From Raja brachyura (Eukaryota): DNA of 64,000 nt. The translations under genes and the position numbers were made by a program. The stretch is taken from positions 46,686,001 to 46,750,000 of the forward strand of contig OY740790.1 in NCBI GenBank assembly GCA_963514005.1. The letters are read 5' to 3'. The notes under the pieces are model-generated. The model did not search any database. It saw only the letters and a program-made list of their open reading frames with translations, and had not been told where the DNA came from. Shown in pieces: positions 3,290 through 48,287 of the stretch (the stretch's first letter is position 1; the number at the start of each line of letters is the position of its first letter).

Positions 3290-4335
3290 GTCAGAGAGCT
3301 CACTTTATTTCATGGAGCCGTCATCATGTTTATCAAAGATCCTATAGCGAGCAAGATAGTTCATTCAACGAAAAAGACGTAGTACGGTCATGGGCAGATT
3401 CATGGGTAATCTTCGGCCCCATTTCCGTAACCGGTTTTCGTCTCCGCCATCTTTGTCCGCCATAGCGGAGCAAAGATAATAGTGTGGAGACAGAAGCCGG
3501 ATACGGAAACATCCTCGTAAAAATCAAACATCTTTGGTAAAAATGTTTTCCTCATTTTCTTTCTGTCTCTCTGCCACAATTAAAGGCAAAATGATGCCTA
3601 TGTTCCTTCCACAACGAGTGGGAAGTATGGCACGGCTGGGACGCCAGGGTAAAGTTGCGGGGAGGTTTGCAGTGTAATTTTATGTAATGGTGTCCCTTGT
3701 CTGGGCCTTGAGTCCAAAGTAAAGTTTATCATCATATATAAAATCTGGAGAAATGTATATGTATGTTATATGATTATATACATCTATATCACATTCATAT
3801 ATGTGTGTATGTGTGTTCTTTCCTACACAATCTAATCAGTGTATGGTCGCTGAATAAACCATCCTTAAGTTATACATCGTATTTTAATCTAGCTCAAAAC
3901 AAATTTTATTTTGTTAAATACTTCATTTAGATAACCCCACCATTACAGACAGATCTCATTCCACTCTCTGGCTATTGGGAAGACCAGATCCATTTTATTG
4001 TTGAAAAACAATTCCATAGACAGGCCCATACGAAACTTTCCAAAAAGGTGGGTGGCATGACAAGATTACAGAAAATTTAACGTGACCAATATTTCAGAAA
4101 TTAACAGGAATCAGGTAGCTTTTTCACACAAAGGGTGCTGGGTGTATGGAACACGCTGCCAGAGGAGGTAGTTAAAGCTGGGACTAAAAAGTTAAGAAGA
4201 AAAATGCATGTAGATAAGTAGAGCAGATTTGAAAGAGGAGTGAAATGTAAAGGCAGAGAGAGGTTTATGGGTGGAAAGGAACATAGGAAAGGAGGGGGGA
4301 GAGTGGGCTTGGGAGATGGGTGAAGGGAAAATAGA

Positions 4336-4555
4336 CACAAAGTGTTGGAGTAACTCAGTGGGTCAGGCAGCATCTGCGGAGAATATGAATAGGCGACGTT
4401 TCACAGAGTACTGGAGTAACTCAGCGGGTCAGGCAGCATCTCTAGAGAACATGGATAGATGACATGTCACAGAGTGTTGGAGTAACTCAGTGAGTCAGGC
4501 AGCATCCCTGGGGAAAAGGTATACATTATATTTTGGGTCAAGACCGTTCTTCAGT
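4336..4555. repeat. Three tandem 66-bp units of the Penelope-like terminal repeat
   Basis: Units start at 4336, 4402 and 4468 (caca(a/g)agt..tggagtaactcag..ggtcaggcagcatc). Confidence 0.75.
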
Positions 4556-6559: not shown

Positions 6560-6720
6560 GGAGTGGCGGGGGTGGGGGTGGTGTGGGCCCAGCGGGGATC
6601 AGCGGGGGTGGCGTGGGCCCAGCGGGGGTGGCGTGGGCCCAGCGTAGGTGGAGTGGGCCAGCGGGGGTGGCGTGGGCCCAGCGGGGGTGGCGTGGGACCG
6701 GTGGGGGGAGGGGCGTGGGG
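6560..6720. repeat. GC-rich minisatellite, unit about 20 bp (ggcgtgggcccagcgggggt)
   Basis: About 5-6 imperfect tandem copies with dense G-runs. Confidence 0.8.
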
Positions 6721-8120: not shown

Positions 8121-8442
8121 ATGGCTCACTGCGTGTACCCGAGGCCGGGGCCGGGGTCGGGGTCGATCCCGGTGTTGGAGCAGGTTGGCTGGGCTAGCGA
8201 CAGACACGCACGGATCCTGCTGGCCCAGATCAACCGCATGAGGGCCCGCGACGACTTCTGCGACGTGCGGCTGCAGGTGGAGCAGCAGGTCTTCAGCGTC
8301 CACAGGCTGGTGCTGGCCGCCAGCAGCCCCTACTTCGCCGTGCTCTTCGCAGGGGGCTTGCAGGAAACCGGCCAGAGCCTCGTCCACATCCACGGCATCG
8401 AGGCAGAAATCTTCACGCTGCTGCTTGACTTTATTTACACCG
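8121..8442 (+). CDS. IPP: Actin-binding protein IPP (KLHL27), coding exon 1, BTB domain
   Basis: ggcatcATGG; SDRHARILLAQINRMR...FCDVRLQV...HRLVLAASSPYF...LLDFIYTG; donor gtgaga at 8443. Confidence 0.93.
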
Positions 8443-8475
8443 GTGAGAGGATGGATCAATGTTCTCCTGTCGCGT

Positions 8476-8678
8476 AAGATAGACACAAAATGCTGGAGTA
8501 ACGCAGCGGGACAGGCAGGCAGCGTCCCTGAAGAGAAGGAATTGGTGATGTTTCGGGTCGAGACCCTTCTTCGGACTGCCTGAGGAAGGGTGTCGACCCA
8601 AAACATCACCCATCTTTTCTCGCCAGAGATGCTGCCTGCCTGTCCCGCTGAGTTACTCCAGCATTTTGTGTCTATCTT
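8476..8678. repeat. Palindromic pair of Penelope-like ends (arms about 100 bp)
   Basis: aagatagacacaaaatgctggagtaac... versus ...gttactccagcattttgtgtctatctt; a degenerate hammerhead core on each strand. Confidence 0.8.
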
Positions 8679-9230
8679 CCGTGTAAGCCAGCATCTGCAG
8701 TTTCTTCCTACATGTTTATTTTGTCGCTTCACAGACCCAGTTGCAAACCATCGAGAATAAAGTCATTGCGTTGGGGGAGAAAACATTGGATCACAGATCA
8801 AAGGGAGAATTCCGCTTTAAAGCTTAAAACCATTCTCTTTGATCAAACTATTGGTCACTCTCGTGTGGCTTCACTTCTCTTTTTATTTGGTTAATGTGTG
8901 TGAAGGCCCCCGTCACTTTATTCTGCACTTAAAGGCAAAATAAATGCAGTGTTGTGACCGCATGCCCTTCGACATCATTACACACAGTGAGGTACCCACC
9001 TAATAAAGTCACAACATGGGACTATTTGAATGTTAAACATTAGCCAACATGATCAAAATAAAGATGTCTGTGTTGTATACTATTGAATAATGCAACCAGG
9101 TGACTGAAAGACTGAAGGGAATTATCATGGATTGCAGTATATAAATTGAAAAGATATGTATGAATTAGTTAAAAGATTCTTCAGCTTTAAGAGTGAGTGT
9201 CATTCCAATCAACTTTAGTAAGCAAACTGG

Positions 9231-9800: not shown

Positions 9801-10283
9801 AGCTAGTGCGCTGCAGTGGTAAATATGTACGTTTATTTTCATACCGTTCACTTTCCCGCAATCTTACCAAGAGCCAAAGTATCAGCAGTGCTATCTCCAA
9901 GTCACCATGCAAATTGGATATTTTGAATTAATTGTCATTGGGTTTTAATCCAAGAATTCCCATTCTTTATATCATGTCGGAATCCACCATCACTACTTCA
10001 GTCAGATAAGGAATAATTGGACATTTGCCCAAGAACACATACAATTTAAAATTTAGACAGTTCTATTGAACAGAAAGACAGCTAATAGTTTTGGACCATT
10101 TATTGTGAGGGTTGAATCAACTAGATAAGCAAATGAATGTGGGTAAAATTAGTATATACTGATGACTGTGCATTCAAAATATTTGAAGTATTCAATATTG
10201 ACATCAGAACTCTTCTCACAGTTGAATATAGTGAGTTTCAAATGTAGGATTTTAATGGGCACTTTCTTCTATTTTGTCCACAG

Positions 10284-10715
10284 GTGTCATCAGTGTCAGC
10301 ATAAAAAATGTACAAGAGGTGATCCTTGCTGCAGACATGTTGCAGTTAACTGAGATTGTGAACATGTGCAGTGGATTTTTGAAAGGGCAAATTGACCCCT
10401 CAAACTGTGTTGGAATTTATCAATTTGCTGAGCAAATTGCCTGCCATGATCTTGCCGAATTCAGTGAAAGTTATATTTATGTCCACTTTCTGGAGGTCTG
10501 TAAAACTGAGGAGTTCATGGGATTAGCCAAAGATCAATTGGTTAAAATTTTAAAAAGTGAAGAACTCCAGATTGAAGACGAATATCAAGTTTTCACAGCT
10601 GCTATGGAATGGGTTCTCCACGACATGGTCAAAAGGAAAAAGTATGTGATTGAAATTCTGGATCCTGTTCGGTTCCCTCTGCTCTCTTCACGGAGATTAT
10701 TCAAGTATATTGAAG
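10284..10715 (+). CDS. IPP: IPP coding exon 2 (BTB end and BACK domain)
   Basis: Acceptor ccacag, donor gtaatg; NVQEVILAADMLQL...IDPSNCVGI...VRFPLL; 432 nt, phase 1/1. Confidence 0.95.
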
Positions 10716-10997
10716 GTAATGTACAGTTTTGAGTATTCTATATTCCCTAGGTGATGTTGCTGCTCCTTAGGAAATAGCACAGAAAACATTAGTATACAAA
10801 TAAATTTGCAGTACAAATTTGTTTGCTGTTGTCCTCTACAACATTATTAACCCATGTGAATTACATGTTACCTGTGGATTCCTCCCATATAAATAGACAC
10901 CAGGAGCTCATAATGAGATGGGGCCTCTTTATTTCAAGGGTTCTTCACAGCCAGCTCCTTTGAAACTTACTATAAATTTAGTTTACGTTGCTGCTTA

Positions 10998-11245
10998 AAG
11001 GCCCTGTCCCACTTTCCTGAGTTACTTACAAATTCTCCCGAGTTTTCCTCTTGATTCAAACTTGGAGATGCCAGCCATAGGTACTCGGGCCTATATTTTT
11101 TACTCGTGAACATTTTTCAATATGCTGAAAAAACGTCCCGAATTACCTGATGCCCCAAGTACCTATGGCTGGAATTACAAGCCGCTACGAAATATCTACG
11201 GATTCCTACGGACTCACTACGGACATTCACCGAGTTTGAATCATG
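10998..11245. mobile_element. Truncated MITE end, possibly Harbinger type
   Basis: ttaaaggccctgtcccact start with tacgg subrepeats; no partner TIR seen. Confidence 0.35.
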
Positions 11246-11320
11246 GTATAAGAGCTGTTAATTACATGACATAGCTGCCTAGATTAGAAGGTTTCAGCTA
11301 AAGGGAGAGGTTGGATACAA

Positions 11321-12018
11321 TTTTTTTTTTTTTTTTAATATTTTTATTAAAAGTAACCAATTATAATGCTTTTAACAACTTTCCAAACGTCAACTTAATT
11401 CCATTATTTTACAAACAATGCATTAATAATTCTTCTTATACTCTATTTTTTTTGATATATAGATAGAAAAAGAATAGAACAGATATAAATCATTAAAGAT
11501 ATGATTAAATAATAATTTGATTATATATAAGAAAGAGAAAAAAAGAGAAAAAGAAAAAAGTTATCAAAAAAAAAACAAAAAACTGATAGAGTATTATATA
11601 TATATATATGTAAACAAAACAGCAATATACATTATCGATAAAGCTATTACAGATAGTAATATCCATGAGAACATGCATGTCAATCCCAATGTGAAAATGA
11701 GTCATTCCCGCCGAATCCCGCAGGGTGCCCGTCGAGCCGTGTTGCCAAGAACAGCTACTTCTCTAAATACTGTATGTATGGAGACCACATCTGTTCGAAG
11801 GAATTATATTCGTCCAATAGGACAAATCTAATTCCTTCCAGATGTAGCGTCTCCAACATTTCTGCTGCCCACATTTTAGTTGTGGGGATTGATATTCCCT
11901 TCCAAAATTTCAAAATAATTTTTTTCCCAATTATCAAACAGTAATCTAAGAAATTTCTTTGATTACCTGTAAGTGCCAAATTTAAGTCAGGGATTCCAAT
12001 TATTATTAACTTTGGGTC
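11321..12018 (-). mobile_element. 5'-truncated L1-clade LINE inserted in a CR1 fragment
   Basis: Poly(T) at 11321-11336; ORF2 C-terminus DPKLIIIGI...WKG...W..Y..YLEK; 15-bp TSD agaggttggatacaa at 11306-11320 and 12019-12033. Confidence 0.9.
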
Positions 12019-13094
12019 AGAGGTTGGATACAATTGGATTGTTTTCTCTAGAATGTTGAAAATTGAGGGGAGACTTGATAGAAACATAAAATCATGAGAG
12101 GCTTAGATAGGGTAGACAGTCAGAAAGGTCTTCCGTCTGAAGAAAGGTCTCGACCTGAGATATTACCCATTCCTTCTCTCCAGAGATGCTGCCTGCCCCG
12201 CTGAGTTACTCCAGCATTTTGTGTCCATAGATAACCTTTTTTTAGGGTGGAAATGGTCAACACTAGAGGGCATAGCTATCAGGCGAGAGCGGATAGTTTG
12301 ATGGAGATGTGCGGGGCATGTTTTTTATATATGTGGTGGTGGGGTCCTGGAACGCATTGCCAGGGATTGTGGGAGGGGCAAATACGATAGTGACATTTAA
12401 GAGGCTTTTGGATAGGCACATGGAAGTGCAGGGAATAAAGGGATATGGATCATGTACAGATAACATCAGTTTAGCTAGGCATCATGTTCGACACTGCATT
12501 GTAGGACAAAGGGCCTGTTCCTGCCTTGTTTTATGTTCTATAACAATTGCAAAATAAGCTATTGTTGTAAAGCAACCATTATTTATAGTCAATAGTACAT
12601 TTTATTTCTGATTTTGTTCTGATAAATGTTACATATTTTATTGGTCACCAGCTCACTTAATTTCTGTGATCTTCTCACTGGTATAGTGTCACTTACACTG
12701 AGCTTACCAGTTCCCCAGATGTTGTTGGAATGTTGTTCATCTCCCGATTCATGATGTTGCCTTATTGCCGCTGTTGTCTCATCACTGCTGTTGTCAACAA
12801 TATCTCAGGTTGCATTCTTTTAATGCATCAATTGTCTTTGCAATACCTCTGGGAAAAGGCCAGATAATAATTGAATCTATTATCAATTTGTACTAAGTTA
12901 TTCTCAGTCCCAGATACTTTTCACCAGAGCCTCAAAATCCCACATATGGATCCCTTCCTTGTTGGGAGGTACTTGTATGCCTGAAGAAGGGTCTCAACCC
13001 AAAACGTCATCCATTCCTTCTCTGCAGAGATGCTGCCTGTCATGCTAAGTTATTCCAGCTTCTTGTGTCTATCTTCAGTTTATAGAAAATAATA

Positions 13095-14925
13095 GAAAAT
13101 CTATAAAAACATAGAAAATAAGTGCAGGAGTAGGCTATTCGGCCCTTCGAGCCTGCACCGCCATTCAATATGATCATGGCTGATCATTCAACTCAGTATC
13201 CTGTACCGGCCTTCTCTCCATACCCCCTGATCCCTTTAGCCACAAGGGCCACATCTAACTCCCTCTTAAATATAGCCAATGAACTGGCCTCAACTACCTT
13301 CTGTGGCAGAGAATTCCAGAGACTCACCACTCTCTGTGTGAAAAATGTTTTCCTCATCTCTGTCCTAAAGGAATTCCCCCTTATCCTTAAACTGTGACCC
13401 CTTGTTCTGGACCTCCACAACATCGGGAACAATCTTCCTGCATCTAGCCTGTCCAAACCTTTAAGAATTTTGTAAGTTTCTACAAGGTCCCCCCTCAATC
13501 TTCTAAATTCTAGCGAGTACAAGCTAAGCTAATGTCAGAACTTTCCTCATATGAAAGTCCTGACATCCCAGGAATCAGTCTGGTGAACCTTCTCTGTACT
13601 CCCTCTGTGGCAAGAATGTCTTTCCTCAGATTTGGAGACCAAAACTGTACGCAATACTCCAGGTGTGGTCTCACCAAAACCCTGTACAACTGCAGTAGAA
13701 CCTCCCTGCTCCTACACTCAAATCCTTTTGCTATGAATGCTAACATATCATTCGCTTTCTTCACTGCCTGCTGCACCTGCATGCCTACTTTCAATGACTG
13801 GTATACCATGACACCCAGGTCTCGTTGCATCTCCCCTTTTCCTAATCGGCCACCATTCAGGTAATTGTCTACCCTCCTGTTTTTGCCACCAAAGTGGATA
13901 ACCTCACATTTATCCACATTATACTGCGTCTGCCATGCATTTGCCCACTCACCCAGCCTATCTAAGTCATCTTGCAGCCTCCTAGCATCCTCCTCACACC
14001 TAACACTGCCCCACAGCTTTGTGTCATCCGCAAACTTGGAGATGTTGCATTCAATTCCCTCGTCCAAATCATTAATATATATTGTAAATAGCTGGGGTCC
14101 CAGCACTGAGCCTTGCGGTACCCCACTAGTCACTGCCTGCCATTCTGAAAAGGACCCGTTTACTCCTACTCTTTGTTCCCTGTCTGCCAGCCAGTTCTCT
14201 ATCCACATCAATACTGAACCCCCAATACCGTTTGCTTTAAGTTTGTATGCTAATCTCTTATGTGGGACCTTGTCGAAAGCCTTCTGAAAGTCCAGATATA
14301 ACACATCCACAGGTTCTCCCTTATTCACTATACTAGTTACATCCTCAAAAAATTCTATAAGATTCGTCAGACATGATTTACCTTTCATAAATCCATGCTG
14401 ACTTTGTCCAATGATTTCACCGCTTTCCAAATGTGCTGCTATCCCATCTTTAATAACTGACTCTAGCATTTTCCCCACTACCGATGTTAGACTATTTGGC
14501 CTGTAATTCCCCGTTTTCTCTCTCCCTCCCTTTTTAAAAAGTGGGGTTACATTAGCCTCCAATCCTCAGGAACTACTCTGGAATCTAAAGAGTTTTGAAA
14601 AATTATCACTAATGCATCCACTATTTCTGGGGCTACTTCCTTCAATTTACCTAACACCACTTCCCGGCTAACCTGGATTTCACTCAGTTCCTCCATGTCA
14701 TTTGACCCCCGGTCCCCTGCTATTTCCGGCAGATTATTTATGTCTTCCTTTGTGAAGACAGAACCAAAGTAGTTATTCAATTGGTCTGCCATGTCCTTGT
14801 TCCCCATGATCAATTCACAAGTTTTTGACTGCAAGGGACCTACATTTGTTTTAACTGGCCTTTTTCTCTTCACATATCTATAAAAACTTTTGCAGTCCGT
14901 TTTTATGTTCCCTGCCAGTTTTCTG
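13095..14925 (-). mobile_element. 5'-truncated CR1/HER1 LINE, RT domain, disrupted
   Basis: NYRP, YLDFQKAFDKVPH, GVPQGSVLGP, KFADDTKL motifs; several frameshifts. Confidence 0.92.
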
Positions 14926-15639
14926 AATCTGAATGTTGGACTAATTTCAAACATACTTTTCTCAGGCAAATCATGATTATCAAAGAGAGATCTTAATTCT
15001 TCAACTGTACAGTCTACTGCAATGCATGAGCCTACGTATTTGACACCAAACTATTTCAAATGCCTATCAATTAGCCCCAAAGTTTGTATCTGGCTTTCTT
15101 TCAAAGGTTAATATGAATATGTTGTAAAAGTTTTAATTGTTATTTATATTGCCTTTGATGCAATGATTTTTTGCCTTCACGCAGATCTATGTCTGAATCT
15201 ATTTAGCCAATCATTTTGCACTTATAGACTCTGTCAAAATTTAGACTCCTTGTTTACTCCTGGCTCTTTCCACAGTTGTCTACCACAAACATTTAGTTAT
15301 TTGTACATTGTTACTTATTCCTACGGTCATCTTGACAAGACATCTAATATAACATTTTGTATGGTGCTCGATGCAAGCTATCAGAATGGTAGTGATGGAG
15401 TAGTACAGTCCAGACTCAAAATGCTGGAGTAACTGAGCGGGACAGGCAGCATCTCTGGAGAGAAGGTATGGGTGACGCTTCTTCAGACTCATTCCTTCTC
15501 TCCAGAGATGAGGATTGGAGGCTAATGTTTGCTGAGTTATTCTAGCATTTTGTGTCTATCTGGTTTAAAACAGCATATGTAGCTCCTTCCTTAATGAGTA
15601 GTACAGTTTATCTTTACATCACAATAGAAATTACAGATT

Positions 15640-16370
15640 TTAGACCCAGTTAGGTTAGCAGAGTTGTATGGTACAATAGATGGAGCAAAGGGAAAGATGC
15701 AGAGTGCAGAACATAGTTCACAGCATAGCAGAGCACCAGCTCCAAATACCATAAATAATGGAAGGACCATTCAGAAGCCTGATAACAGGGGAAGAAGCTG
15801 TTCCTGAGTCTGGAGATACAGCTTTCAAGCTTGTACACCTCCTACCAGTGAAGAAGGAATGACTGGGATGGAACGAGTTTTTAATTATGTTGGCTGCTTC
15901 TCTGACGTGGAGTGAAGTGTAGATGGAGTCAATGTACAAGTCTGGTCACTGTGATAGACTATGATATATCTATAACTCTCTGAAATCTCTTGCAGTCTTG
16001 AGCAGAGCTATTCCAAAGCCAAGCTGTGATGCAAGCCAACTAGACTTTCTATAGTGCATCTGTAGAAGTTTGTAAGAGTCAATGGAGACATACCGACCTT
16101 CATCAGTCTCCTCAGGAAGTAGAGATGTTGGTGTTCCTTCTTGGCTATCACATCAATTGTGGTTGGTTCACAACATATCACTGGCATTATTACTGCCAAG
16201 GAACCTGAAGCTCTCAACCATTTCCACTTCCTCACAAATTATGCTGATTAGGGCATGATCTCCATCATGCTTCTTGTGGTCTATAACTGGCTCCTTTGTC
16301 TTGCTGGTGTTTAGGGAGCGGTTATTGTCCTGACTCCATACAACAAAGTTCTTAATCTTCGTGTACTCCA
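15640..16370 (-). mobile_element. Rex1/Babar LINE 3' fragment
   Basis: QHLYFLRRL...LTNFYRCTIES; RLRNSFFP. Confidence 0.7.
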
Positions 16371-17068
16371 TCTCATCAATAAAAAGAAGAGGAAAATTAT
16401 CTGAAGTGTGAGAATTAATATTGAGTCATTTTAGGTCTGGGCAGTTTGCAGCCTGCCCAAATGAAACATGAGTGTTGTGTTATTCCTTAAGCTTACGGTA
16501 AACCTCATTTAACAGTGGAGGGGCCACTCTGGGACCGTGGGAGAGGGATGGTGAATTAAAAGGGCAGACAACCTGAAGCCATTCACCAGAAGGGTAAAAA
16601 ATAAGGGATCATTAATTAAAGATTGACAGAAATATCTTTACCCATAACATGGTGGAATCCAAAACTGCCTGCAAGAGTGGTAGAGGCGGAACTGCCTGTG
16701 TTCTTTAACCATTATTGAGTTATTTAACTCATTATTGATCTGCAAAGGTGCAATGGTCAAAATATCTTTGCATCATATAGTCTATTTTAAGAATTATTTT
16801 ATTCCAAACAGGATTGTTACAATGCACAATGATTTACTTTCTGTCTAGCATTGATATAAAAGCTATGTGTCATTGGTTCTGAGGATTAAAGCATTTTGCA
16901 GCTCTAAACCGAGGAACATGGCAGTGGATGCGGACTCTCCTGCCGTAACCATTTCTGGCACTACTTGTACTCGCATGACTCAAAGTCAGTGTTAGAGCTC
17001 CTGCCACTTTCTGTGCCATTTGCCTACATACTGCATTAATGCTAGCATGCTGCGCTAGTCAAAACACT

Positions 17069-17264
17069 TCTATATTTTTGGAGGACAGAGGTGTATTTTG
17101 CATGCTTGTTTGAATATTAGATTTTGCATGTTTTCATCTTGGGCTGGAAACATCCATAAATCCACGCGTGAATTCTTTTGCCAACAAGTGATCCAAGAGA
17201 GTTAGATAGAGCTCTTAGGAGTGGCGGAATCAAGGGATATTAAATTAAAGACAGGAACAGGGTA
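17069..17264. repeat. Left copy of 196-bp direct repeat flanking the L1
   Basis: Matches 21286-21481 except 17259 a / 21476 g. Confidence 0.92.
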
Positions 17265-20200
17265 TATAAGGTATATCACTCTTCATTTATACATAAATCT
17301 AGAGGAGTTGCAATAATTATCCGTAAAGGTATACCTTTTAAACAAAGTACTATAATAGAGGACAAAGAGGGTAGATATGTAATAATTACAGGGGAATTAT
17401 ATTCACAGAAAGTAATTTTGGTGAATATATATGCCCCTAATTTTGATAATCCTTTATTTTTTAAGAAAATATTTAATAATATCCCTATTTCCACTCAATA
17501 TAATGTAGTTATTGGGGGTGATTTTAATTGCACCTTAGATAGCTACCTAGACAGGTCTTCTACAAAAAGGAAAGCTACCTCTAAATCAAGTAAACTTATA
17601 AATTATTTTATTAATACATCTAATGTTAAGGATATTTGGAGATTAGATAATCCATCCGGACGAGAATACCTCTTTTTCTCGCCCGTATATGGAACTTACT
17701 CTAGGATAGATTATTTTCTAATAGATTCAAAATTACTACCTTTTACGTATGATGCAAAATATCACAATATTATTATTTCAGATCATGCGCCACTAACATT
17801 CAAGATAAAATTAAAAGATATACTTAATAAAACTACTACTTGGAGATTTAATCCCCAGATATTAAAGGATAAGGACTGTTGTAAACATGTAGTGGAACAG
17901 ATTAAACTATTTTTTGAAACTAATGACAAACCTGAAATTTCACCATCATTACTTTGGGACACATTTAAAGCATTTATGCGTGGTGCAATAATATCAGCAC
18001 AGGCTTATTTTAATAAAGAAAATAGAAAGATGGAACAAAAGTTAGAAAATGAGATAAAACAACTAGATAGTGAAAACATAAAACACCCTTCTAAAGAGTT
18101 AAGTAATAAAATTGCAATAGTAAAATATAGACTAACTAAAATATATTCTAACCAAGTCATCAAAAGTTTTTCAACAAACCAAACAAGTGCACTTTGAATT
18201 TGGAGACAAACCACAAAAATTGCTAGCACGACAACTTAGAAAATTAGAAGATGAAAAAATGATACATAGAATTAGATCTGCGCATGGAAATATATTGACG
18301 ATACCAAAAGATATTAATGACAGATTTCTACAATATTATCAAAATCTTTATTCATCTAAATTAACAGGACAAACAGATGGTATGGAAACATTCCTACAAG
18401 AATGTCAAACTAATAGTCTAGATCAGGAAGGTAGACATTTGTTAAATGCTGAAATAACAGTAAAAGATATTGAAGAATCAATTAGTTTGTTAAAGAATGG
18501 AAAAGCAGCGGGCCCTGATGGCCTGAGTGCAGAATTTTATAAAAAATTTCAAGATCTGATTTCCCCGAGATTACATACAGTGTATAGATATGCATATGAA
18601 CAAGGCAAATTACCAGAATCTTTAAATGAATCCACAATTACACTCATTCCTAAGGCAGATAAGGATTTGGAAGATCCAGGATCATATAGAGCGATTGCCC
18701 TTCTAAATACAGACCAAAAAATATTAACTAAAGTTTTATCCCGGAGATTAAGTCTGGTGATTTCTAAATTAATACATTATGATCAAACAGGTTTTATTCC
18801 AAAACGCTATTCATCCCATAATCTTAGACGCTTGTTTAATATTATATATTCAAAAAGAGTACGGGACAAGGAATTAGCGGTTGTATCGCTAGATGCAGAA
18901 AAGGCATTCGATCAGGTGGAATGGTTATATTTATTTAATATAATGGAAAAGTTTCAATTGGGGGATAGATTCTGTAAATGGATAAGAATTTTATATTTGA
19001 ATCCTACGGCAAGAATCTTAACTAATCAAATATTATCAGCTAAATTTAAGCTCTCTAGGGGATGTAGACAGGGATGTCCGTTATCACCTTTACTATTTGC
19101 TTTGATGATAGAGCCTTTGGCGGAAAGAATTAGATCTGAACCTGAAATATACGGCTATAATACTGACACAACAACTAACAAAATATCTTTATATGCAGAT
19201 GATGTTTTGATTTATATTACAAAACCGGAAATTAGTATACCTAAGCTGTTTAATGTTATAACTAAATTTGGCACATTTTCAGGATTTAGGATTAATTGGA
19301 ACAAAAGTGATATTATGCCTATAACGGGAATAAATTTAAATATATTACAACAATACCCACTAAAAATAGTTACAGACAAATTTAAATATTTAGGAATTAT
19401 TGTAACTAAATCTTATAATTCACTAATTAAATCTAATTACCCTCTATTACTAGATAAACTTAAAAAAAATATTTTGTATTGGAAAACACTTCCTATATCT
19501 ATGATTGGTAGAATAAATGCTATAAAGATGGTGTTTTTACCACAATTATTATATTTGTTTCAGGCTATTCCTTTTTTTCTCCCCAAGACTTTTTTTTAAA
19601 AAAAGATAATATTATTAATAGTTTTATTTGGGATTATAAAAATCATAGAATAAGTAAAAAACATTTATGTAAATCTAAGATAAATGGAGGATTAGCACTT
19701 CCAAATTTTTTATATTATTTTTGGGCAGTCCAGATTAAGAATATGAATTTCTGGTGGGTAAATATGGATCATGAACCAAATAAAGATGGAAAAGGAAGAC
19801 TGTTTACCTTATAATGTAGGCTCGATTCTCTTTGCCCCAAAGGAAGTACAAAAAAAAATTTATAGGGACAACCCTATAATTTATAATAATAGACGTATTT
19901 GGAAACAAATAGTTAAGACTTTACATCTAGATAATCTTTCACTTAGACTACCAATTACGAATAACCCATTATTTAAACCCTCTATATTGGATGGGGGGTT
20001 CAGACATTGGGATGATTTAGGAATTAAAAGGATAGAGCACCTTTATAGAAAAGGAAAATTTCTTTTATTCCAAGAGTTACAAGATATCTACGGATTGTCT
20101 CCGCAACACCTGTTTAGGTACTTACAAATTAGAGATTATATTAAATCCAATACACAAGATTATAAAAATAAAGAACCAGGATTATTAGATGAATTGTTAA

Positions 20201-21285
20201 TTTGCACCCAAATACAGAAAAACTAATAGCCTATATATATAACATAATTTTGGATAAGGAGAACCCAACAACTGAAACATATCATCAAGCATGGGAAAAT
20301 GAAATTGGTTTATCTATAACAAAAGAAAATTGGGAAGAAAGTTTACAGCGAATACACTGGTGTTCATTAAATGCCAGACATACATTGATACAATTTAGAG
20401 TACTATATAGATTACATTATTCAAAAACTAAATTAAGTAGTATCTTTCCCAATCTCTCTTCAATTTGTGATATATGTAAGAATTTAGAAGCAAATTTAAT
20501 ACACAGTTTTGCTACATGTCCCAAATTGAATTACTACTGGACAGAAATTTTTTAAGTTATTTCTGAAGTTCTTAAAATTAGATTGGACCCTGACCCAAAG
20601 TTAATAATACTTGGAATTTTGGATTCAAATTCGGTACTTACAGTAAATCAAAGAAATTTCTTTGATTACTGTTTGGTAATAGGGAAAAAAATCATATTGA
20701 AATTTTGGAAGGGAACGGTATCCCCCACAATTAAAATGTGGGCAGCAGAAATGTTGGAGACGTTACATTTAGAAAGAATTAGATTTGTCCTATTGGACAA
20801 ATATAATTCCTTCGAACAAATATGGTCTTAATATATACAGTATTTAGAGAAGTAGCTGTTCTTGACATCACAACTCGGCGGGTACCCTACGGGATTTGAT
20901 GAGAATAATTTATTTTTATACTAGGATTAATATGCATGCCTTTATTGATATTATCATTTGTAATAGTTTTAGTTACAATATATTTTGTTGTTTTTCATTT
21001 ATATATATATATATAATATCTTTTTACTTTTTGTTAACCTTCTTTCCTTTCTCTTTTTTCTTTTTCTCTTATATATATAATCAAATTATTATTTAATCAC
21101 TCCCTTATTGATTTAAAACTGCTCTACTCTATCCTTATCTTTATCTCCAAAAAAATAGAAGATAATAACTTTCAACGGGTTATTTGAAAAAATATGGAAT
21201 TAAGTTGATGTTTGTAAATCTGTTTACACTATTGTAAATTGATTACTTCTAATAAAAGAAATTAAATATGAAAAAAAAAAAAAAA
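17265..21285 (+). mobile_element. L1-clade LINE, truncated within the APE endonuclease; ORF2 with frameshifts; poly(A) tail
   Basis: NIYAPN, GGDFN, SRIDY, SDHAP (APE); LDAEKAFD, RQGCPLSPLLF, YADD (RT); C..C...H....C; A15 at 21271-21285. Confidence 0.95.
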
Positions 21286-21481
21286 TCTATATTTTTGGAG
21301 GACAGAGGTGTATTTTGCATGCTTGTTTGAATATTAGATTTTGCATGTTTTCATCTTGGGCTGGAAACATCCATAAATCCACGCGTGAATTCTTTTGCCA
21401 ACAAGTGATCCAAGAGAGTTAGATAGAGCTCTTAGGAGTGGCGGAATCAAGGGATATTAAATTAAAGACAGGAACGGGGTA
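21286..21481. repeat. Right copy of 196-bp direct repeat
   Basis: Begins immediately after the poly(A). Confidence 0.92.
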
Positions 21482-22309
21482 CTGATTGTGGATCAGCCAT
21501 GATCACATTGAATGGGGGTGCTGGCTCGAAGGGCCGAATGGCCTACTGCTGCACCTATTGTCAAAAAAAGTTGGTACTTTTTGTAATTAGTCATCTCCCC
21601 TGACCTTTGATCTTTGTTCATAAACTTGCAATGCTTCACAATTTATGATGGATTGAGATTAAGTGATTTTGTAGCTTATCTATTTTATTCAATGAAGCAC
21701 CAAATGACCTAGCAGGTGCGGTTGGTTGATGTGCATTTGTAAAGTATTTTGTTCTCTTTCCCAAACAAAATTCACATTGTGTTCATGAATGGACTTTGCC
21801 TTCAATTAAAAAAATAAATGTAATATCAGAACTACAGAGCTCTTGTGCTTTGTTGTAGGCTCAGAGACATCTAATTTTGCTGTCAGTGACTATTCTGCTA
21901 TTTTTTACTGTCAACCCTTTCAACAGTGAACAGGCAGGTTTTTTATGAGGGATCAATTTTGTGAGTGCTATCTTGTTTATGTCATGTACGCTTCAGCACC
22001 TCAACACGTCACTTAGGAATTTGTAGACTCATTTAGACTGATCTTGTCATTAGGGATGGTTGTTATCCTTTGTCATAAGATTCTCGTTACCAATGCACAA
22101 CATTGTGGCGTCCTAACATCAAATTAAGTCAATTTTCAGAATATACAGGCAAATTCATAAAAGAGCTGATGGGGTCAAAACAAAGAATATGGTCTTCTAG
22201 ACCACCTCACCAACTTCCTCTCTGAAATAGCCAATAATACATTGTCACACTACATAATAGAATTCTTTATATGATGCACTCTTTAATAAAACCATCTCAA
22301 AGCAACAAG

Positions 22310-22545
22310 GCACAAGAGATTGCAGATGCTGGAGTCTGCCTCCTGTTTCCTGCAAATTAAAGATGTAGCCATGGACACTCACCTAGGCCCGAGCTGTACC
22401 TGCCTCTTTAATGGCTACGTGGAGCAGTCTTTGTGCCAAATTTTCTACAGCACCATTTCCCAACTACTAATTTTGCAGTCCAGATGAAAGGCCTCTACTC
22501 AAAATGTAGCTGTCCATTTCCCTGACTCACTAAGTTGCTCCAGCT
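22310..22545 (+). mobile_element. Penelope-like element remnant with RT fragment
   Basis: FLQIKDVAMDTHLGPSCTCLFNGYVEQSL at about 22347-22433 resembles the PLE RT motif QxxGVAMG..GP.YA.LF; bounded by the recurrent terminal repeat. Confidence 0.6.
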
Positions 22546-22639
22546 GTGCTCCCTTTTTCACTCAAATTGGCACTTATTGATCATAACATTACAAGTTCCA
22601 GAGCTGTGAAGAAATTTGTGATTTGCTTAAGTTGTAAAA

Positions 22640-23050
22640 AATTGTCCTAAAAATGAAAATTATCAACTTCAAGAAGCATGGTGGAGTACATGCCCCAATC
22701 AGTATCAATGGTGCCGAAGTGGAAATGGGTCAGAGATTCAAGTTCCTTGGTGTGAATTTTACCAATCACATGTCATGAACTAACCACATTGATGCAACCA
22801 CAAAGAAGGCATAACAATGCCTTTACTTCTTGAAGAGACTGATGAAATTCGGCATATCTCCAATGAGATCTACAGATGTATCATAGAAAGCATGCTCTTG
22901 GATTGCATCTCAGTTTGAGAAAAGTTGTATGCAAAACCACAAGAAATTCAGAGGGTTGATGTAGCCCAGTCCATCACACGGACCAGACTTCCCACTGTTG
23001 ACTTCATCTGCTCTCCATACTGCTGCTGAAAAGCAGCCAACATAATCACA
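22640..23050 (+). mobile_element. Rex1/Babar LINE fragment
   Basis: Degenerate FKFLGV and LYFLKRL-like sequence. Confidence 0.55.
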
Positions 23051-23664
23051 GACAAAGTGCTGGAGTAACTCAGCGAGTCGGGCACAACTGAAGAACATGG
23101 ATAGGTGACGTTTCAGGTCGGAACCTATATGTGACAATAATAAACCTAAACCCATACTATTTCTTCATTGTGCACAGGCAGCAGTGGTAAAACTCTCCGA
23201 TCTCATCTCAAATGGAAGTGCTAACTAACTTTTATGATAAATAAAATGATCGCAGTTCTATTAGATATTTTAATCGGATACAATTATTAATGCATTTAAG
23301 TTGCTAGTTTTGTTTCAGATTGCTCTGCTGGTGAGCTGGCAGTGAGCAATGATGGAGTTTTAGACCCAGGTTTCTCGCAGCACACCTTTCCCACTCACCC
23401 ACCTCCCTCCCCTTCATTCTCAGCCTTACTAACGTTAAACTGGAAATTGTTTGTCAAGAAGCTCTTTAGCTGTTGGCAACATTACTAATTATTCTATGAT
23501 CTTTGCTCAATAGACCTCACCTTGTATTGTAATGTCCATGGAAAGTAATTCTGCCTAGCCGAGGAATGGCGAGCCCAATATAAAAATATTCCTGCCAAAC
23601 CAGAATCATCTCAGAATTTTCTCACAGGTGGGATGGGGATGGGATGAGCAATATTGTAAATAGG

Positions 23665-23925
23665 GCAACATAGCGGTGCAATGGTAGAGCTGCTGCCTCA
23701 CGTGCTAGAGACCCGGGTTCTGTCTGTGCTAAGTTTGTATGTTCTCCACATGGATTTTTTCCAGATGCTCTGATTTCCTCCCATATTCCGAAGACATGCA
23801 GGTTTGTAGGTTAATTGGATTCTGTAAATTGTCTCTAGTATGTAGGTAATTAGAACTACTGTATGGGGATCAATGCTTAACGTGGTGTCGATGGGCCAAA
23901 GAGCCTGTTTGCACACTGTATCTTT
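23665..23925 (+). mobile_element. HE1-like tRNA SINE, degenerate
   Basis: Aligns by eye with 9486-9800. Confidence 0.7.
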
Positions 23926-24397
23926 CAGCTGAGCCAGCTTAACCAAATTGAAATTTCATGTAGTTCAATTTGAATTCCATATTTTAATTCTGCTTTCCTG
24001 TATACGCAGCCACCTATTAGGAAGTCCAGAAACTTTTTTTTCCATTAAAGATGTTGCATGAGAAAGTTACGATCCACGTATAATTTGTATCGTCTTGGAA
24101 TTGTGGTAACGCAACTTAATTAGAATCTATTCATTACTCCTACCAAATTAAATATCTCAAGGTGAGTAATAACTTAAAAACCAAGAACCAAATGCCTTAA
24201 AGATCTGCATAAATTAATTAATTGGAGGTGAACTCATTGGCACTCATTTACCAGCGGGTTTTATCTGAATTTACAAGTTGCAACATGCTTGCCTACACCA
24301 GTTTATTTTAAAATATTGAACATGTATTGTTGAATGCTTTGGTGTTGTATTTTATGCCATTTGTTTTACACACAGCTGCTTCTGATCTTATCTCCAG

Positions 24398-26171: not shown

Positions 26172-27776
26172 CAGTGGCTTGCAAAGGTTTTCATACCCCT
26201 TGAGCTTTTCCACATTTTGTCACGTCACAACCACAAATATAAATGTATTTTATTGGGATTTTATGTGATAGATCAACACAAAGTGGCGCATAATTGTGAA
26301 GTGGAAGGAAAATGATACATGGTTTTCAAATTTTTTTACAAATAAAAAACATAAAAGTGTGGCGTGCAAAAGTATTCAGCCCTTTTACTCTGATACCCCT
26401 AAATAAAATCCAGTGCAACCAATTGCCTTCAGAAGCCACCTAATTAGTAAATAGAGTCCACTTGTGTGTAATCTAATCTCAGTATAAATACAGCTGTTCT
26501 GTGAAGGCCTCAGAGGTTTGTTAGAGAACATTAGTGAACAAACAGCATCATGAAGCCCAAGGAACACGCCAGACAGGTCAGGGATAAAGTTGTGGAGAAG
26601 TTTAAAGCAGGGTTAGGTTATAAAAAAATATCCCAAGCTTTGAACATCTCACAGAGCACTGTTCAATCCATCATCCGAAAATGGAAAGAGTATGGCACAA
26701 CTGCAAGACATGGCCGTCCACCTAAACTGACAGGCCGGGCAAGGAGAGCATTGATCAGAGAAGCAGCCAAGAGGCCCATGGTAACTCTGGAGGAGCTGCA
26801 GAGATCCACAGCTCAGGTGGGACAATCTGTCCACAGGACAACTATTAGTCGTGCACTCCACAAATCGGGCCTTTATGGAAGAGTGGCAAGAAGAAAGCCA
26901 TTGGTGAAACAAAGCCATAAGAAGTCCAGTTTGCAGTTTGCCACAAGCCATGTTGGGGCACAGCAAACATGTGGAGGAAGGTGCTCTGGTCTGATGAGAC
27001 CAAAATTGAAGTTTTTGGCCTAAATGCAAAACGCTATGTGCGGCGGAAAACTAACACTGCACATCACCCTGAACACACCATCCCCACTGTGAAACGTGGT
27101 GGTGGTAGCATCTTGCTGTGGGGATGCTTTTCTTCAGCAGGGACAGGGAAGCTGGTCAGAGTTGATGGGAAGATGGATGGAGCCAAATACAGGGCAATCT
27201 TGGAAGAAAACTGTTAGAGTCTGCAAAAGACTTGAGACTGGAGCGGAGGTTCACCTTCCAGCAGGACAACGACCCTAAACACACAGCCAGAGCTACAATG
27301 GAATGGTTTAGATCAAAGTATATTCATGTGTTAGAATGGCTCAGTCAAAGTCCAGACCTAAATCCAACTGAGAATCTCTGGCAAGACTTGAAAATTGCCG
27401 TTCACAGACGCTCTCCATCCAATCTGACTGAGCTTGAGCTATTTTGCAAAGAAGAATGGGCAAACATTTCAGTCTCTAGATGTGCAAAGCTGGTAGAGAC
27501 ATACCCCAAAAGACTTGCAGCTGTAATTGCAGCGAAAGGTGGTTCGACAAAGTATTAACTCAGGGGGGCTGAATACTTTTGCACGCCACACTTTTCAGTA
27601 TTTTATTTGTAATAAAATTTTGAAGCCATGTATCATTTTCCTTCCACTGCACAATTATGCACCACTTTGTGTTGGTCTATCACATAAAATCCCAATAAAA
27701 TACATTTACGTTTGTGGTTATAATGTGACAAAATGTGGAAAAGTTTAAGGGGTATGAAAACTTTTGCAAGCCACTT
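26172..27776 (+). mobile_element. Tc1-like DD34E transposon, IR/DR type, transposase frameshifted
   Basis: TA then cagtggcttgcaaa; TIRs about 210 bp with inner repeats at 26359-26382 and 27566-27589; GRPPK, WSDETK, QQDND-34-E (SPDLNPTE); CDS remnant 26550-27558. Confidence 0.95.
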
Positions 27777-30590: not shown

Positions 30591-31795
30591 TTTCTTTATA
30601 TTTCAAAATAGACTTTATTCAAATAATAAATATGTACAATACATCAACCGTGCGAAAATTCCATCCGACATTTTCGGAGGCTATACAAATTGTTCCATAC
30701 AGTCTATATACATTTCTCAAATTTCGCGAATCGATCCCCCACCCGTGCCACTCATGTGATGCTGGCATGGATACCTTCCCTTATTTTGAGGGGCGTCTCC
30801 ACCATACCGTGCCCCCCATGTCCAGCAGCGGAAGGACCTTTGACTGTGGCCCTCCCCCACCGAGCCTTGGCGTTGGCTGCACCGAACTTCAGTGTGTTCC
30901 TCAGCACGTACTCCTGCAGTCTGCAGTGGGCCAGTCGGCAACATTCCCCGACGGACATCTCACTCTGCTGGGTGGTGAACAACGCTCGGGCAGACCAAAG
31001 AGCGTCTTTCACCGAATTGATGACCCTCCAGCAGCACTTGATGTCAGTCTCTGAATGTGTCCTTGGGAACACAGACATAAATTTGTAAATCACAGAGTCC
31101 TCTGTGACGAAGCTGTTTGGAATAAAGCGTACCAGGGACCCTTGCATTTTTCTCCAGACTCTTTGGGCAAATCCACACTCTGCAAAGAGGTGGGCAACCG
31201 TCTCCTCTCCATAATAGCCGTCCCAAGGGCAGCGTGTGCTGGTAGTAAGGTTCCGACGGTGCAGGAAGGATCTGACTGGGAGGGCTCCCTTCACCACCAG
31301 CCAAGCCAGGTCTTGGTGCTTGTTGGTGAGTTCTGGCGATGAGGCATTTTGCCAGATAAGCTGGGCAGTCTGCTCAGGGAACCACGCCACCGGGTCCATC
31401 GAGTCCTTTCCCTGCAGTGCCTGCAGAACATTCTGTGCTGACCACTGCCCAATGGACATGTGGTCAAAGGTGTTGGTCCGGAAGAACCTTTCCACAGACG
31501 ACAGATGGGGCGGCAGTGTCCAGCTGACTGGCACCTTGCGTGGCATCTGCGCCAGCCCCATCCTTCGCAACACCGGGGACAGGTAGAACCTCAGCAGGTA
31601 GTGACACTTGGTGCCCACGTGCCTTGGCTCTACACTCCGCCTGATGCAGCCACACACGAAGGTGGTCATCAGGATGAGAGCGACGTTGGGCACGCTTTTA
31701 CCCCCGTTGTCTGCTGACTTGTACATTGTGGCCCGTCGCACCTGGTCCATCCTCGACCCCCAGATGAACTGGAAGACGGGTGATCCCTGTGGCGT
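30591..31795 (-). mobile_element. 5'-truncated Tx1-type (L1 group) LINE
   Basis: 332-aa ORF2 C-terminus with DLAW...LPVR and CP....EETVAHLFAEC; 14-bp TSD aggctgatgtttta at 30577-30590 and 31796-31809. Confidence 0.88.
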
Positions 31796-32330
31796 AGGCT
31801 GATGTTTTAATAAGTTTGAACAGACAGTACCTCAGAATTGTGTAATCTTTCGCAAACATTGACTTCTCAGTTTTTGTATAGGGTCAGTTATTTTTCAGCT
31901 AGGGTGATTTTTTGTTTCTGATAAGTAACACACGCCGATTAAGTACCTTGGTCTTTTAGAACATTTCCCATAAGCTACCAGATCCTTTGAAAACTTTTAA
32001 CTCAGTAAATGAGCCAGCAACTGGATAGTTGGGGACATTTAAGGTGAGGTGGGCAAGAAAACAGTTAAATTGGTATTTTTATAGCTTCCATTAAAAATTA
32101 ATAACAATTTAGTATATTTGATTTTGAGTAATTTGGGGGGGGGGGGGTTAAATTCTTTCACAAAAATCACAAATTTTAAGATTGATTAAATTTACCAAGA
32201 TTATTATAAATAATCAAAATAAATGGTTTACATTTTTAATTGTTTTGAAGATGATAGGTTATAAAAAAAACCCCAATAGAATTGGCTGTACAAGTAGGTA
32301 TGTTCATGATGCCTTAATTTTTTTTGCAAG

Positions 32331-40559: not shown

Positions 40560-41270
40560 TTATTTTTCATTTGAAACTAACTTTTTCTCAGGATATGTAT
40601 TTTTTACTATTATTAAAGCAACCAAAGAGAATGTTGCTACCACAGTCAGCACTGTTCGAAGTGCTCTAAACCAATTTGGATAACCTGGGAGTAAGTTTAA
40701 GTCATAATGTAATGCTATACCAAGACCCATGATAACCAAAATAGCTGCCTCTGTGAGATTGTCATGAAAAAGTAGGGCTATCCAGGCAAGTAAAGGAGGA
40801 ACCAAACTGTTTCCCAGATTCAGCCAGTCAGGTTTTGCAGGGCTGTTTTCTGGAATTGAAAATCCCCACCGTACTCCTCCAAGAAAAGAGAGTATTGCTG
40901 CTCCATATGCTATTTGGGCAAAAGCTACTTCAGGGAAATATGTTTCCGTAATGGCCATGATCAGAGGAGCCGAGACAAAAGGAATTAATCCACCACAACC
41001 AAGATAGAGGGCAGCTTTGGGACTGTTCTTCAGTTCTTTAAAGTCATATCTTATCAAGTCTAATTCACGTTTCTCTGGTTCCTGTACTTTCTTCATCTTG
41101 GATGCTTGAGAGGACACATGAAAAGAGCTCATCTGAATTCGGGAAGTTGCTGATCTTTCGAGACACTTAATGTTTTGGTGCAAAGGAATTCTTTGCATAT
41201 AAGGCATCAATAAATGATAGGTAGTGATTTTTCTCGATTCATTTGGAAACCATGATCTCAATTTCTCAAT
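40560..41270 (-). CDS. TMEM69: Transmembrane protein 69, main coding exon
   Basis: SPKAALYLGCGGLIPFVSAP...QIAYGAAILSFLGGVRWGF...PDWLNL...YPNWFRALR; acceptor ttccag at 41271; phase 0. Confidence 0.93.
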   Translation of the reverse strand: MEKLRSWFPNESRKITTYHLLMPYMQRIPLHQNIKCLERSATSRIQMSSFHVSSQASKMKKVQEPEKRELDLIRYDFKELKNSPKAALYLGCGGLIPFVSAPLIMAITETYFPEVAFAQIAYGAAILSFLGGVRWGFSIPENSPAKPDWLNLGNSLVPPLLAWIALLFHDNLTEAAILVIMGLGIALHYDLNLLPGYPNWFRALRTVLTVVATFSLVALIIVKNTYPEKKLVSNEK

Positions 41271-41744
41271 CTGGAATACACAGCAAAAATAATTAGTAAA
41301 ATTAGTATATGTTATTCTGTTTGGCTGCAAAACATGAATCCAAAATTCATGATAAACTTTCAAAACAAATCTCAATCGTCCGCAAACTAGGTTTGCAAAA
41401 AAAATTGTTTTCTGAATTAAATATAGAACACATTTTTCAGAATTAAAAACTACAAATAATCAGTTTCACACATGGAATTGTTTAATACCGTTTCTGCGGA
41501 CGACAGAAAGTTCAACGGACTGAATTAACAAATTTATCGACTTTTGGTTTGCTGGGTAATTAATAAATAACAAAAAACATTAATCAAATATACAAGCACT
41601 AGAAGTGTTTCCATACACATCAAAACAGTACCATTGGAAGCTAGAGGAAGAACTGAAATAGACTGTTTCATGTTTCCCACAATAGGTCACGTACAGCTTG
41701 AACTCATCTAAGTTCCCAAGGTCACGCCTTTCATCTGGTGAGGG

Positions 41745-44952: not shown

Positions 44953-45249
44953 AATAGTACGATTAAATGAGAACTTACCAGTTTGAAGTTTGATCTTTAT
45001 TTTATGAGGAGTTACGATGAGCGATTACGTGCCCACCACTCCCAACCCTCGTATCATAAAGGTCATCTGGTAGTTCTCTCCAATCTTACTATATTCAGGT
45101 CAACAACTGTTATCTGTGATTTCACACAGTTGCTTTGAAGATTGACGCGCATGCGGGCTGGTGGCTTCTTCACATAATCGCTCAATGTAACTCCTTATAA
45201 AATAAAGATCAAACTACAAACTGGTAAGTTCTCATTTAATCTTACTATT
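44953..45249. repeat. 79-bp inverted repeat pair (MITE or DIRS-type end)
   Basis: 44953-45031 versus 45171-45249, about 6 mismatches. Confidence 0.8.
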
Positions 45250-46460: not shown

Positions 46461-46964
46461 GGGGTGGGGAACCTTTTCATGTTGGAATGCAACATTAACT
46501 TAACTGTAATCTAATAAGGCCGCATCCAAGAAACTTCAATTAGATATACTTCAAAATGTACAATAGTTTGTAAAAATCTAATTACTAACTATGCAGCAAC
46601 TGTGCAGGGAATTGCACAGTGGATATTTAGGGTCAGGATCTTTATCCGGATTGATGGAGTAAAGTAGTGAGAGCTGGTAGGAGAGATGAGAAGGGGCAGA
46701 TCAAGAACTAGCAAATGATAAGTGGATCCAGATTACAATTGATTGATTTGCAGCAGTAGCCATTCCACCCCTTTTGCCTGCATGGACTGTGTCAAGCCAC
46801 GTTAGAATGCTATACACTCTCTGTTTCATCTTCCACAAAGTCAAGAAGCCTTTGTGGAAGATGAAACACAGTTAACATTTCAGACCAAAAAACTAAAAAT
46901 TAAGATGAAGCAAGCTTTGGCTTTCTGCTTCATGGGAGGTTTGTAACCTCCCCGATCTCACCTT

Positions 46965-48287
46965 ACAACATCTGTATTATGGCCCAGCTGTTGACTGTCT
47001 TCTTGGACCTCACAGCTGCATATGATACCGTCTGGCTGTGTGGGCTACACATGAAGCTTCTGGAAACCATCCCAGACAAGCACATGGTGAGCTTCATCAT
47101 GGAGATGCTGAGCAACCACAGCGTCAGGCTGCACACCAGCAACGGGCAATGCAGCAGGGTGAGGAAACTTAAGAACGGCGTCCCACAGGGCTCAGTGCTG
47201 GCACCAATGCTGTTCAACATCTACATCCATGACCTGCCTGCAACCCAGTCAAAGAAGTATGGCTATGCTGATGATCTGGCCTTCCTGGGAAGCAGCAGAA
47301 GAGGGCCTCTCTGAAGACATGAACATCCTGTCTTCATACCTGAGAAACTGGCACCTCAAGCTCAGCATGTGTAAGACAACATCTTCTATGTTCTACCTCA
47401 ACAACAGGGAAGCGACCTGCGAGATGAAAGTCACGGTGGATAATGCCCGGTTACGGTCCCAGCCTGTCCTCACGTACCTCGGTGTGAAGCTCAACAGAAC
47501 GTTGTAATTCAAACAAAGCCTGGAAGGTGCCAAGGCAAAGACAAGCGCCTGTGCTGCACTGATATGCCGCCTGCGCATGCCCACAGTGGCCCTGGTGTTC
47601 TCAGCCGCCGAGTACTGTGCCCTGGTCTGGTTCCGTAGCCCTCACGCCAAGAAGCTGGATGCTGCCCTCAACAGCACCCTGCGGACTGTCTCCGGATGCC
47701 TACGTGCCACCCCAGTAAACCAACTGCCCGTCCTCGCTGGTATCGCCCCAGCCAACATCAGACGAGAAGCACCCACGCTGGCCCTCTCTCGAAAGGCGCA
47801 GATCAGTGAATCCCACCTCCTCCATCAGATAGTCACAGAGACAACACGACGAGTGCACCTCAAGTCATGGCACCCCTTTGCCACGCAAGCTGCTCTGCAC
47901 AACACCGGCTGACACTCCTAAGGCCGCCTGGGTCAAGGCGAGATGGAGAGACCAGTGGAAGTCATTGGAACCATCTAGGCTACACCATTACATCAATGAC
48001 CCCATGGACATCCCTGGCCAGGACTTGCCCCGAAAGCAGTGGACAGCCCTCAACCTCTTGAGGGTGGGCGTCGGACGCTATGGAGTAGCGATGAAGAGGT
48101 GGGGCCTCGTGGACAGCGCCTCCTGTGAGTGTGGGGACCCAACACAGACAGTGGAGCACAGTCACCAGTTGCCCCAAACACCGGCCACCGAATGGTGAAC
48201 GAGGTCTGATTAACCTGGACGATGACACGTTGGCCTGGCTCGCCTCAACGGAGCTGCTGGTCTAAAAGACATACGACAGAAGAAGAA
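46965..48287 (+). mobile_element. 5'-truncated Ingi/Vingi-like LINE
   Basis: LDLTAAYDTVW, GVPQGSVLAP, YADD, W..LN.LRVGVGR...CECG...QT.EH; no RNase H seen; tail catacgacagaagaagaa. Confidence 0.75.

Follow-up and report, generated by a model that had tools for sequence, protein, structure and literature searches.

The IPP locus and its L1 copies

The window analyzed here, a 64-kb stretch of the Raja brachyura genome, harbors the BTB-kelch gene IPP, of which eight coding exons were mapped on the plus strand between positions 8121 and 36213. The exon at ∼10280–10729 was 99% identical to a named IPP protein of Leucoraja erinacea (little skate), and the next-best matches to it came from other skates, rays, and sharks. 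An intron of 13.7 kb (10730–24396, limits approximate) separates the second from the third coding exon and contains an L1 copy in the sense orientation. A later IPP intron harbors a Tc1/mariner-type DNA transposon (26173–27775) whose inverted ends measure 210 bp (91% complementary) and whose Sleeping-Beauty-like transposase is broken. Just past the first IPP coding exon, two SINE-like fragments placed head to head form a 100-bp inverted repeat (8473–8681; 87%, 9-nt spacer), and a similar inverted SINE-like pair (79 bp, 92%) is present at 44953–45249. Just downstream of IPP and convergent with it lies a minus-strand exon of a DUF3429 protein (40560–41459), which is probably TMEM69. The window also contains non-LTR remnants at 13103–15050 (a long RT-bearing minus-strand copy, presumably CR1-type), 30752–31831 (a zf-RVT-bearing ORF), and 46904–47912 (an RT fragment), as well as short tandem arrays at 4333–4534 (three SINE-derived units with 66-bp spacing), 6570–6719 (a GC-rich 20-bp unit), and 50762–50960 (a 40-bp unit).

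The intronic element at 17265–21285 is a 5′-truncated, poly(A)-tailed copy. Its ORF2 remnant (17265–20855, plus strand) comprises an endonuclease domain cut ∼65 residues in, a reverse transcriptase with the YADD motif at 19192, and a CCHC knuckle at 20466–20519. It is followed by a 3′ UTR (20856–21270), which aligns with that of a sibling copy and carries AATAAA at 21251–21256, and by a tail of 15 A residues (21271–21285). Among the six ORF pieces scanned, two matched PF03372 (2e-07) and PF00078 (7e-40), and the other four matched no family. Comparison of the reverse transcriptase with solved structures (a ranking among the 10 PDB sequences matched) placed L1 ORF2p first with an E value of 1e-99 and R2 at 1e-23. 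Judged by these sequence characters, i.e., an endonuclease followed by an L1-like reverse transcriptase, a CCHC knuckle, and a poly(A) tail, the element is an L1-clade non-LTR retrotransposon; its identification as L1 in an earlier note on this DNA was thus borne out by the domains and the reverse transcriptase comparison. Similar to the skate copy, fish L1-clade elements possess an apurinic-type endonuclease, a reverse transcriptase, a CCHC knuckle, and a poly(A) tail. The named relatives of the element are teleost and Xenopus proteins, with no named skate family member found among them; full-length relatives were ∼50% identical and one unnamed fragment ∼87% identical. ORF1 and the 5′ UTR have been lost by the 5′ truncation; three of the listed relatives carry PF02994, an L1 ORF1 family.

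Frameshift-aware alignment with five intact relatives revealed the same six disabling lesions in ORF2 against each of the five, namely, four frameshifts (near 18160, 19598, 19779, the last with a 5-nt loss, and 20195) and two premature stops (20553–20555 and 20829–20831). Three of the frameshifts and one of the stops lie at homopolymer runs, as judged by eye. The element is a dead copy carried by the intron as a passenger, and no function is evident for it. Eight AATAAA hexamers are present in the sense-oriented L1 between 17826 and 21256 and could prematurely polyadenylate IPP transcripts. A search for structured RNA in 16500–22000 gave a single Rfam match below the gathering score (Yfr11, E 0.03), which was taken as chance.

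The same intron contains a related short L1 copy on the minus strand (11306–12033, body 12018–11321), which serves as an internal control. It is flanked by an ordinary 15-bp duplication (12019–12033 and 11306–11320) identical at 15 of 15 positions, confirming what the earlier note had stated, and its 5′ junction probably includes a 2-nt microhomology. No T-tract was found at its primer end. The two copies, the only members of this L1 group in the 64 kb, are identical at 565 of 720 positions (78%), and the term sibling is therefore appropriate in the sense of a related L1 subfamily but not of a near-identical sister. Both lie in or beside older LINE fragments in opposite orientations and form an inverted pair of ∼700 bp with 78% identity, ∼8.6 kb apart.

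A long duplication of host DNA around the element

The L1 element is flanked by two direct copies of a 196-nt block, on the left at 17069–17264 and on the right at 21286–21481 (both plus strand). The earlier note had reported a match at 195 of 196 positions, and the self-comparison of the window reproduced it exactly. The probability of such a match by chance is negligible (log10 P of about −99), and the block pair was the sole repeat pair with >95% identity among the 96 alignments listed for the 64 kb, the neighboring repeat pairs being mostly 65–90% identical. The single mismatch is an A at 17259 in the left copy and a G at 21476 in the right copy. The right copy adjoins the run of 15 A residues without a gap, and the end of the left copy meets the onset of L1 ORF2 homology; the direct repeat thus abuts both ends of the element, as is characteristic of a target-site duplication. 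Extension of the match leftward by 8 nt gives 204 nt at 98% identity, since the left flank terminates in four A residues plus four other bases.

The block consists of 127 nt that are unique in the window (the two copies apart) and a final 69 nt that form the start of an older LINE 3′-end fragment (21413–21562, plus strand), presumably of CR1 type. The older fragment crosses the right-hand breakpoint unbroken, running on to 21562, and aligns across it with three other copies in the window at 74–79% identity, whereas the L1 interrupts it in the left copy. This continuity on the right and interruption on the left indicate that the duplicated block is pre-existing host DNA. As the older repeat is cut only in the left copy, the right copy is the native one, and the breakpoint 17264/21481 was made by this event. 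The possibility of 3′ transduction was ruled out, as the right copy continues into the host repeat and no second poly(A) tail is present downstream. A kelch-like YIFGG reading at the block start, noticed by eye, raised the possibility of a duplicated IPP exon, which was rejected, as no IPP exon maps there; none of the eight coding exons mapped in the window is duplicated.

From these features, the block is best read as a long target-site duplication of about ten times the usual length. The claim of the earlier note that it far exceeds an ordinary L1 duplication was sustained, and even when junction microhomology is allowed for (191–196 bp, see below), its length falls outside the 7–30 bp of canonical mammalian L1 target-site duplications. 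The sequence where the left flank meets the block is unique and matches no repeat in the window. Hence, no paralog is available for comparison there, and the left copy could in principle have been supplied by a template switch combined with a target deletion, the true site having had other sequence between the flank and the block. Such an origin is very improbable, as it requires an extra event and the two copies start at exactly the same base. It is just as improbable that same-orientation L1s inserted 196 bp apart on two alleles later recombined, or that an L1 entered a prior duplication that was subsequently partly deleted. A model of this type has been proposed for long HERV-K flanks in the available text of Kahyo et al. 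(2017, PMC5488345), and it would explain the allele-like difference between the copies. It nevertheless demands two independent insertions of the same family within 200 bp, or a precise second event, in a window where this L1 group numbers two copies per 64 kb.

A single difference between the copies is also what would be expected of two alleles; nucleotide diversity in the epaulette shark is ∼0.2% (available text of PMC10587355). The structure could thus represent an assembly artefact in which an empty and a filled haplotype were joined, the block being written twice and the apparent 5′ truncation being a contig edge. The position of four of the six ORF2 lesions at homopolymer runs, typical of consensus error, and a slightly younger appearance of the copies than of ORF2 (see below) would fit such a mis-join. 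Against it, the 64-kb window contains no N, and each of the eight IPP coding exons gives one in-frame alignment block, at 91–97% identity apart from one at 74% that results from an overrun of the alignment into the intron. Moreover, the duplication begins exactly at the poly(A) tail, and the 5′ junction shows a short in-frame microhomology typical of biological 5′ joins. A mis-join is therefore considered unlikely, with only a small chance of being correct.

Junctions and the proposed course of insertion

Across the 5′ junction, the ORF2 frame reads R-V-Y-K-V-Y-H. The column occupied by R is Trp in 73 of 96 anchored relatives (24 of 120 were not anchored), and the column after it is Val or Ile in 62 of the 96; the closest relative (∼87% identical) reads W-I-S-K-V-Y-H. 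The codons that L1 lacks here are compatible with the last five bases of the block (17260–17264) at 4 or 5 of 5 positions; a four-base fit has a chance probability of ∼0.01. Judged from the protein alignment, the 5′ junction probably includes a microhomology of 2–5 nt between the end of the host block and L1 ORF2, i.e., 2 nt if the codon was Trp and up to 5 nt with Val/Ile. As the closest relative has Ile and not Val, the match was possibly 2 nt perfect or 4 of 5. Since the last 5 nt of the left copy are in the ORF2 frame and fit the conserved Trp-Val/Ile, the 5′ edge of the element is ambiguous by 2–5 nt. The exact abutment claimed by the earlier note accordingly held to the base at the poly(A) tail but not at the truncation point, and the length of the duplication is put at 191–196 bp on the strength of the same protein alignment. 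Over the 500 nt that follow the inferred nick, position 192 is where the five-base motif is first encountered. A 7-nt word is present twice, 2 nt apart, across the junction (17261–17276); it may reflect slippage during 5′ joining or simply the sequence of the source L1.

At the other end, the block starts without an A-tract, and a first nick of the TTTT/AA type is not seen at the 196-bp boundary; if this boundary is correct, the primer end was therefore not a T-tract of the mammalian type. Immediately upstream of the left copy, eight bases (17061–17068) begin with four A residues after TC, forming a possible canonical-type endonuclease site (TTTT/GA type). This site, 8 nt upstream of the block, was noticed after the fact, and a comparable one occurs within 10 nt upstream of ∼2% of window positions. 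Its use, which is possible, would make the duplication 204 bp long and mean that four bases next to the poly(A) tail were lost. The absence of a T-tract may also be normal for this L1 family (n = 2), as the sibling copy lacks one and yet has an ordinary 15-bp duplication.

The missing T-tract would also be expected if a collapsed fork or a double-strand break had led to tandem duplication of the block and to capture of the L1 cDNA at the junction, without cleavage by the endonuclease of the element. Break-induced replication has been proposed for small tandem duplications at L1 inserts in the available text of bioRxiv 10.1101/2024.12.14.628481. The sibling, however, shows a normal duplication in spite of the same lack, and the present element has an intact poly(A) end with AATAAA, whereas the endonuclease-independent inserts described in the available text of PMC5223499 were tailless. 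In addition, no DNA hairpin above background was detected at either breakpoint, 18–34% of background tiles being equally stable. Capture at a break thus appears an improbable origin for the structure.

It is likely that the locus arose by a single germline target-primed L1 insertion, apparently inherited, in which the 5′ end was joined 191–196 nt downstream of the first nick, a distance that is usually ∼15 nt. The order read along the DNA is flank, block, truncated L1, poly(A), block, and flank. From this anatomy (the element order, the host origin of the block, and the in-frame microhomology), we infer the following course of events. The bottom strand would have been nicked at the block start, and a cDNA of ∼4.0 kb made from there, halting inside the endonuclease-coding region. 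The cDNA end would then have paired with the target top strand at the 2–5 nt match and been elongated, with strand displacement, back over the block. At the pairing point, the top strand would have been broken by a distant or pre-existing nick, by flap cleavage, or by a passing fork, agents that cannot be told apart from the sequence, and would subsequently have been extended across the cDNA. Later, one CpG would have decayed in the left copy, and ORF2 would have gained its lesions. The earlier note had taken the duplication to imply a distant second-strand nick. That inference was not upheld, as such a nick is one route only, and the microhomology is no less compatible with a cDNA that annealed to the top strand of the target, or jumped onto it, and used it as a template before the branch was resolved.

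The mismatch between the copies is a CpG transition in the left copy (CpG to CpA at 17259); the ancestral CpG is retained in the right copy at 21475–21476, and G is found there and in two of three paralogs, the third also having A. The duplication clock gave a divergence of about 0.2–0.3% per copy (95% interval ∼0.005–1.4%), namely, 0.26% (0.01–1.4%), or 0.19% when CpG sites were weighted by an assumed factor of ten. At the mutation rate of 7e-10 per generation given for the epaulette shark, and not for a skate, in the available text of PMC10587355, the point age is ∼3 million generations (0.07–20 million). One or two ORF2 stops correspond to 0.5–1.4%, with wide limits. The six ORF2 lesions and the one copy difference are mildly discordant (P = 0.03–0.12, depending on the assumed indel rate), and the discordance disappeared (P = 0.4–0.5) when the four homopolymer lesions were set aside as products of slippage or consensus error. 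Of 290 columns invariant in 13 relatives, the element has a different residue in 30, and 16 of these changes are conservative; its identity to the relatives is 50% as compared to 52–59% among them, and these changes therefore give only an upper bound of ∼3% (95% limit 6%). The comparison with the closest relative showed 51 differences, split 24, 20, and 7 unpolarised. The description of the insertion as young thus stands relative to the neighboring repeat pairs (65–90% identical) but is weakened by the six ORF2 lesions and by the nature of the mismatch, and the element is probably not young in years.

Comparison with known long duplications

The second-strand break and the 5′ join are the least understood step of L1 insertion, and long duplications at this step are known mainly from cultured cells. 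In the available text of Servant et al. (2017, PMC5223499; citing Gilbert 2002/2005 and Symer 2002), target-site duplications of >100 bp accompany up to 10% of L1 inserts in HeLa cells and 57–91% in NER-deficient cells, with tabulated examples of 242, 275, and 277 bp. Similar to the skate copy, these inserts are 5′-truncated and poly(A)-tailed with a duplication >100 bp. They derive, however, from engineered L1 of human origin in cell lines and mostly occupy TTTT/A-type sites, whereas the skate insertion is endogenous and presumably inherited, and its duplication starts without an A-tract. For the fish LINE ZfL2-2 in chicken cells, one of 25 inserts had a 1228-bp duplication according to the accessible part of Suzuki et al. 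(2009, PMC2666801), and the long-TSD (L-TSD) class with an annealing route was defined in that of Yamaguchi et al. (2014, PMC4245944). The skate case shares with this class a duplication >20 bp and the microhomology-annealing route for 5′ joining; the class differs in that it was described in reporter assays with zebrafish L2 or human L1 in chicken or human cells and not from natural insertions.

Extremely long duplications have been noted to accompany 5′-truncated inserts in the available text of PMC2912911, the genome survey of which covered duplications of 5–30 bp only. Tandem duplications of 1–10 kb have been treated as large target-site duplications arising from break-induced replication (bioRxiv 10.1101/2024.12.14.628481, text as available), and the accessible part of a long-read study of human L1 insertions gives duplications of 1–31 bp (bioRxiv 10.1101/2024.04.18.590093). 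With cell lines as the main source of long duplications, and with at least one survey limited to 5–30 bp (PMC2912911, as available), the number of natural inherited cases may be underestimated. For HERV-K (HML-2), long flanking duplications have been described at natural, inherited insertions, with loci of 111, 250, and a putative 450 bp (available text of Kahyo et al., 2017, PMC5488345). HERV-K is, however, an integrase-based LTR element that does not use target-primed reverse transcription.

No long natural L1 case appears in the available portions of bioRxiv 10.1101/2025.10.25.684559, PMC13141329, bioRxiv 10.1101/522623, and PMC3747384. The literature searched, which included few subscription papers and excluded supplements, gave no natural inherited L1 duplication >100 bp, in cartilaginous fish or elsewhere, no link to Okazaki fragments, and no study of skate L1, which constitutes weak evidence of absence. 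Long natural cases may be present in supplements (Tables S1–S2 of PMC5223499, the length distributions of PMC13141329), and natural inherited L1 cases with long duplications look rare. The structure is real and unusual, of a kind already known from cultured cells, to which the locus adds a natural example. Since only one dead copy in an intron is involved, no model is changed by it. Its value lies in two readable junctions, a nested older repeat that fixes one breakpoint, and a 15-bp control 5 kb away.

A more general reading, which we regard as a long shot, is that skate L1s regularly leave inherited duplications of 100–200 bp through a pre-existing discontinuity in the top strand, with microhomology choosing the exact base. 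As part of the same improbable reading, candidate discontinuities would be an unligated Okazaki-fragment end or a nucleosome-spaced break. The nucleosome repeat is about 200 bp. If this were true, a second mode in duplication lengths, or a sharp upper limit near one nucleosome repeat, would be expected, and the slowly evolving skate genomes would form a natural archive of what makes the second break of L1 and would supply revertant alleles that look empty. A single locus is not enough to show that long duplications are regular, and the duplication of the one further copy in the window measures 15 bp.

The earlier note had also pointed out that the two copies form a substrate for recombinational excision of the element, a reasonable proposal that stands here as a prediction. 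A distal nick and insert loss by recombination between long copies have both been proposed in the available text of PMC5223499, and empty-looking HERV-K alleles may arise by recombination between the flanking copies according to that of PMC5488345. In the skate, the sole base that distinguishes the copies sits 6 nt from where the left copy ends, and the product of such a loss would therefore almost always equal the ancestral empty allele. If recombination does remove the L1, an empty-looking allele of this type would mislead presence/absence phylogenetics.
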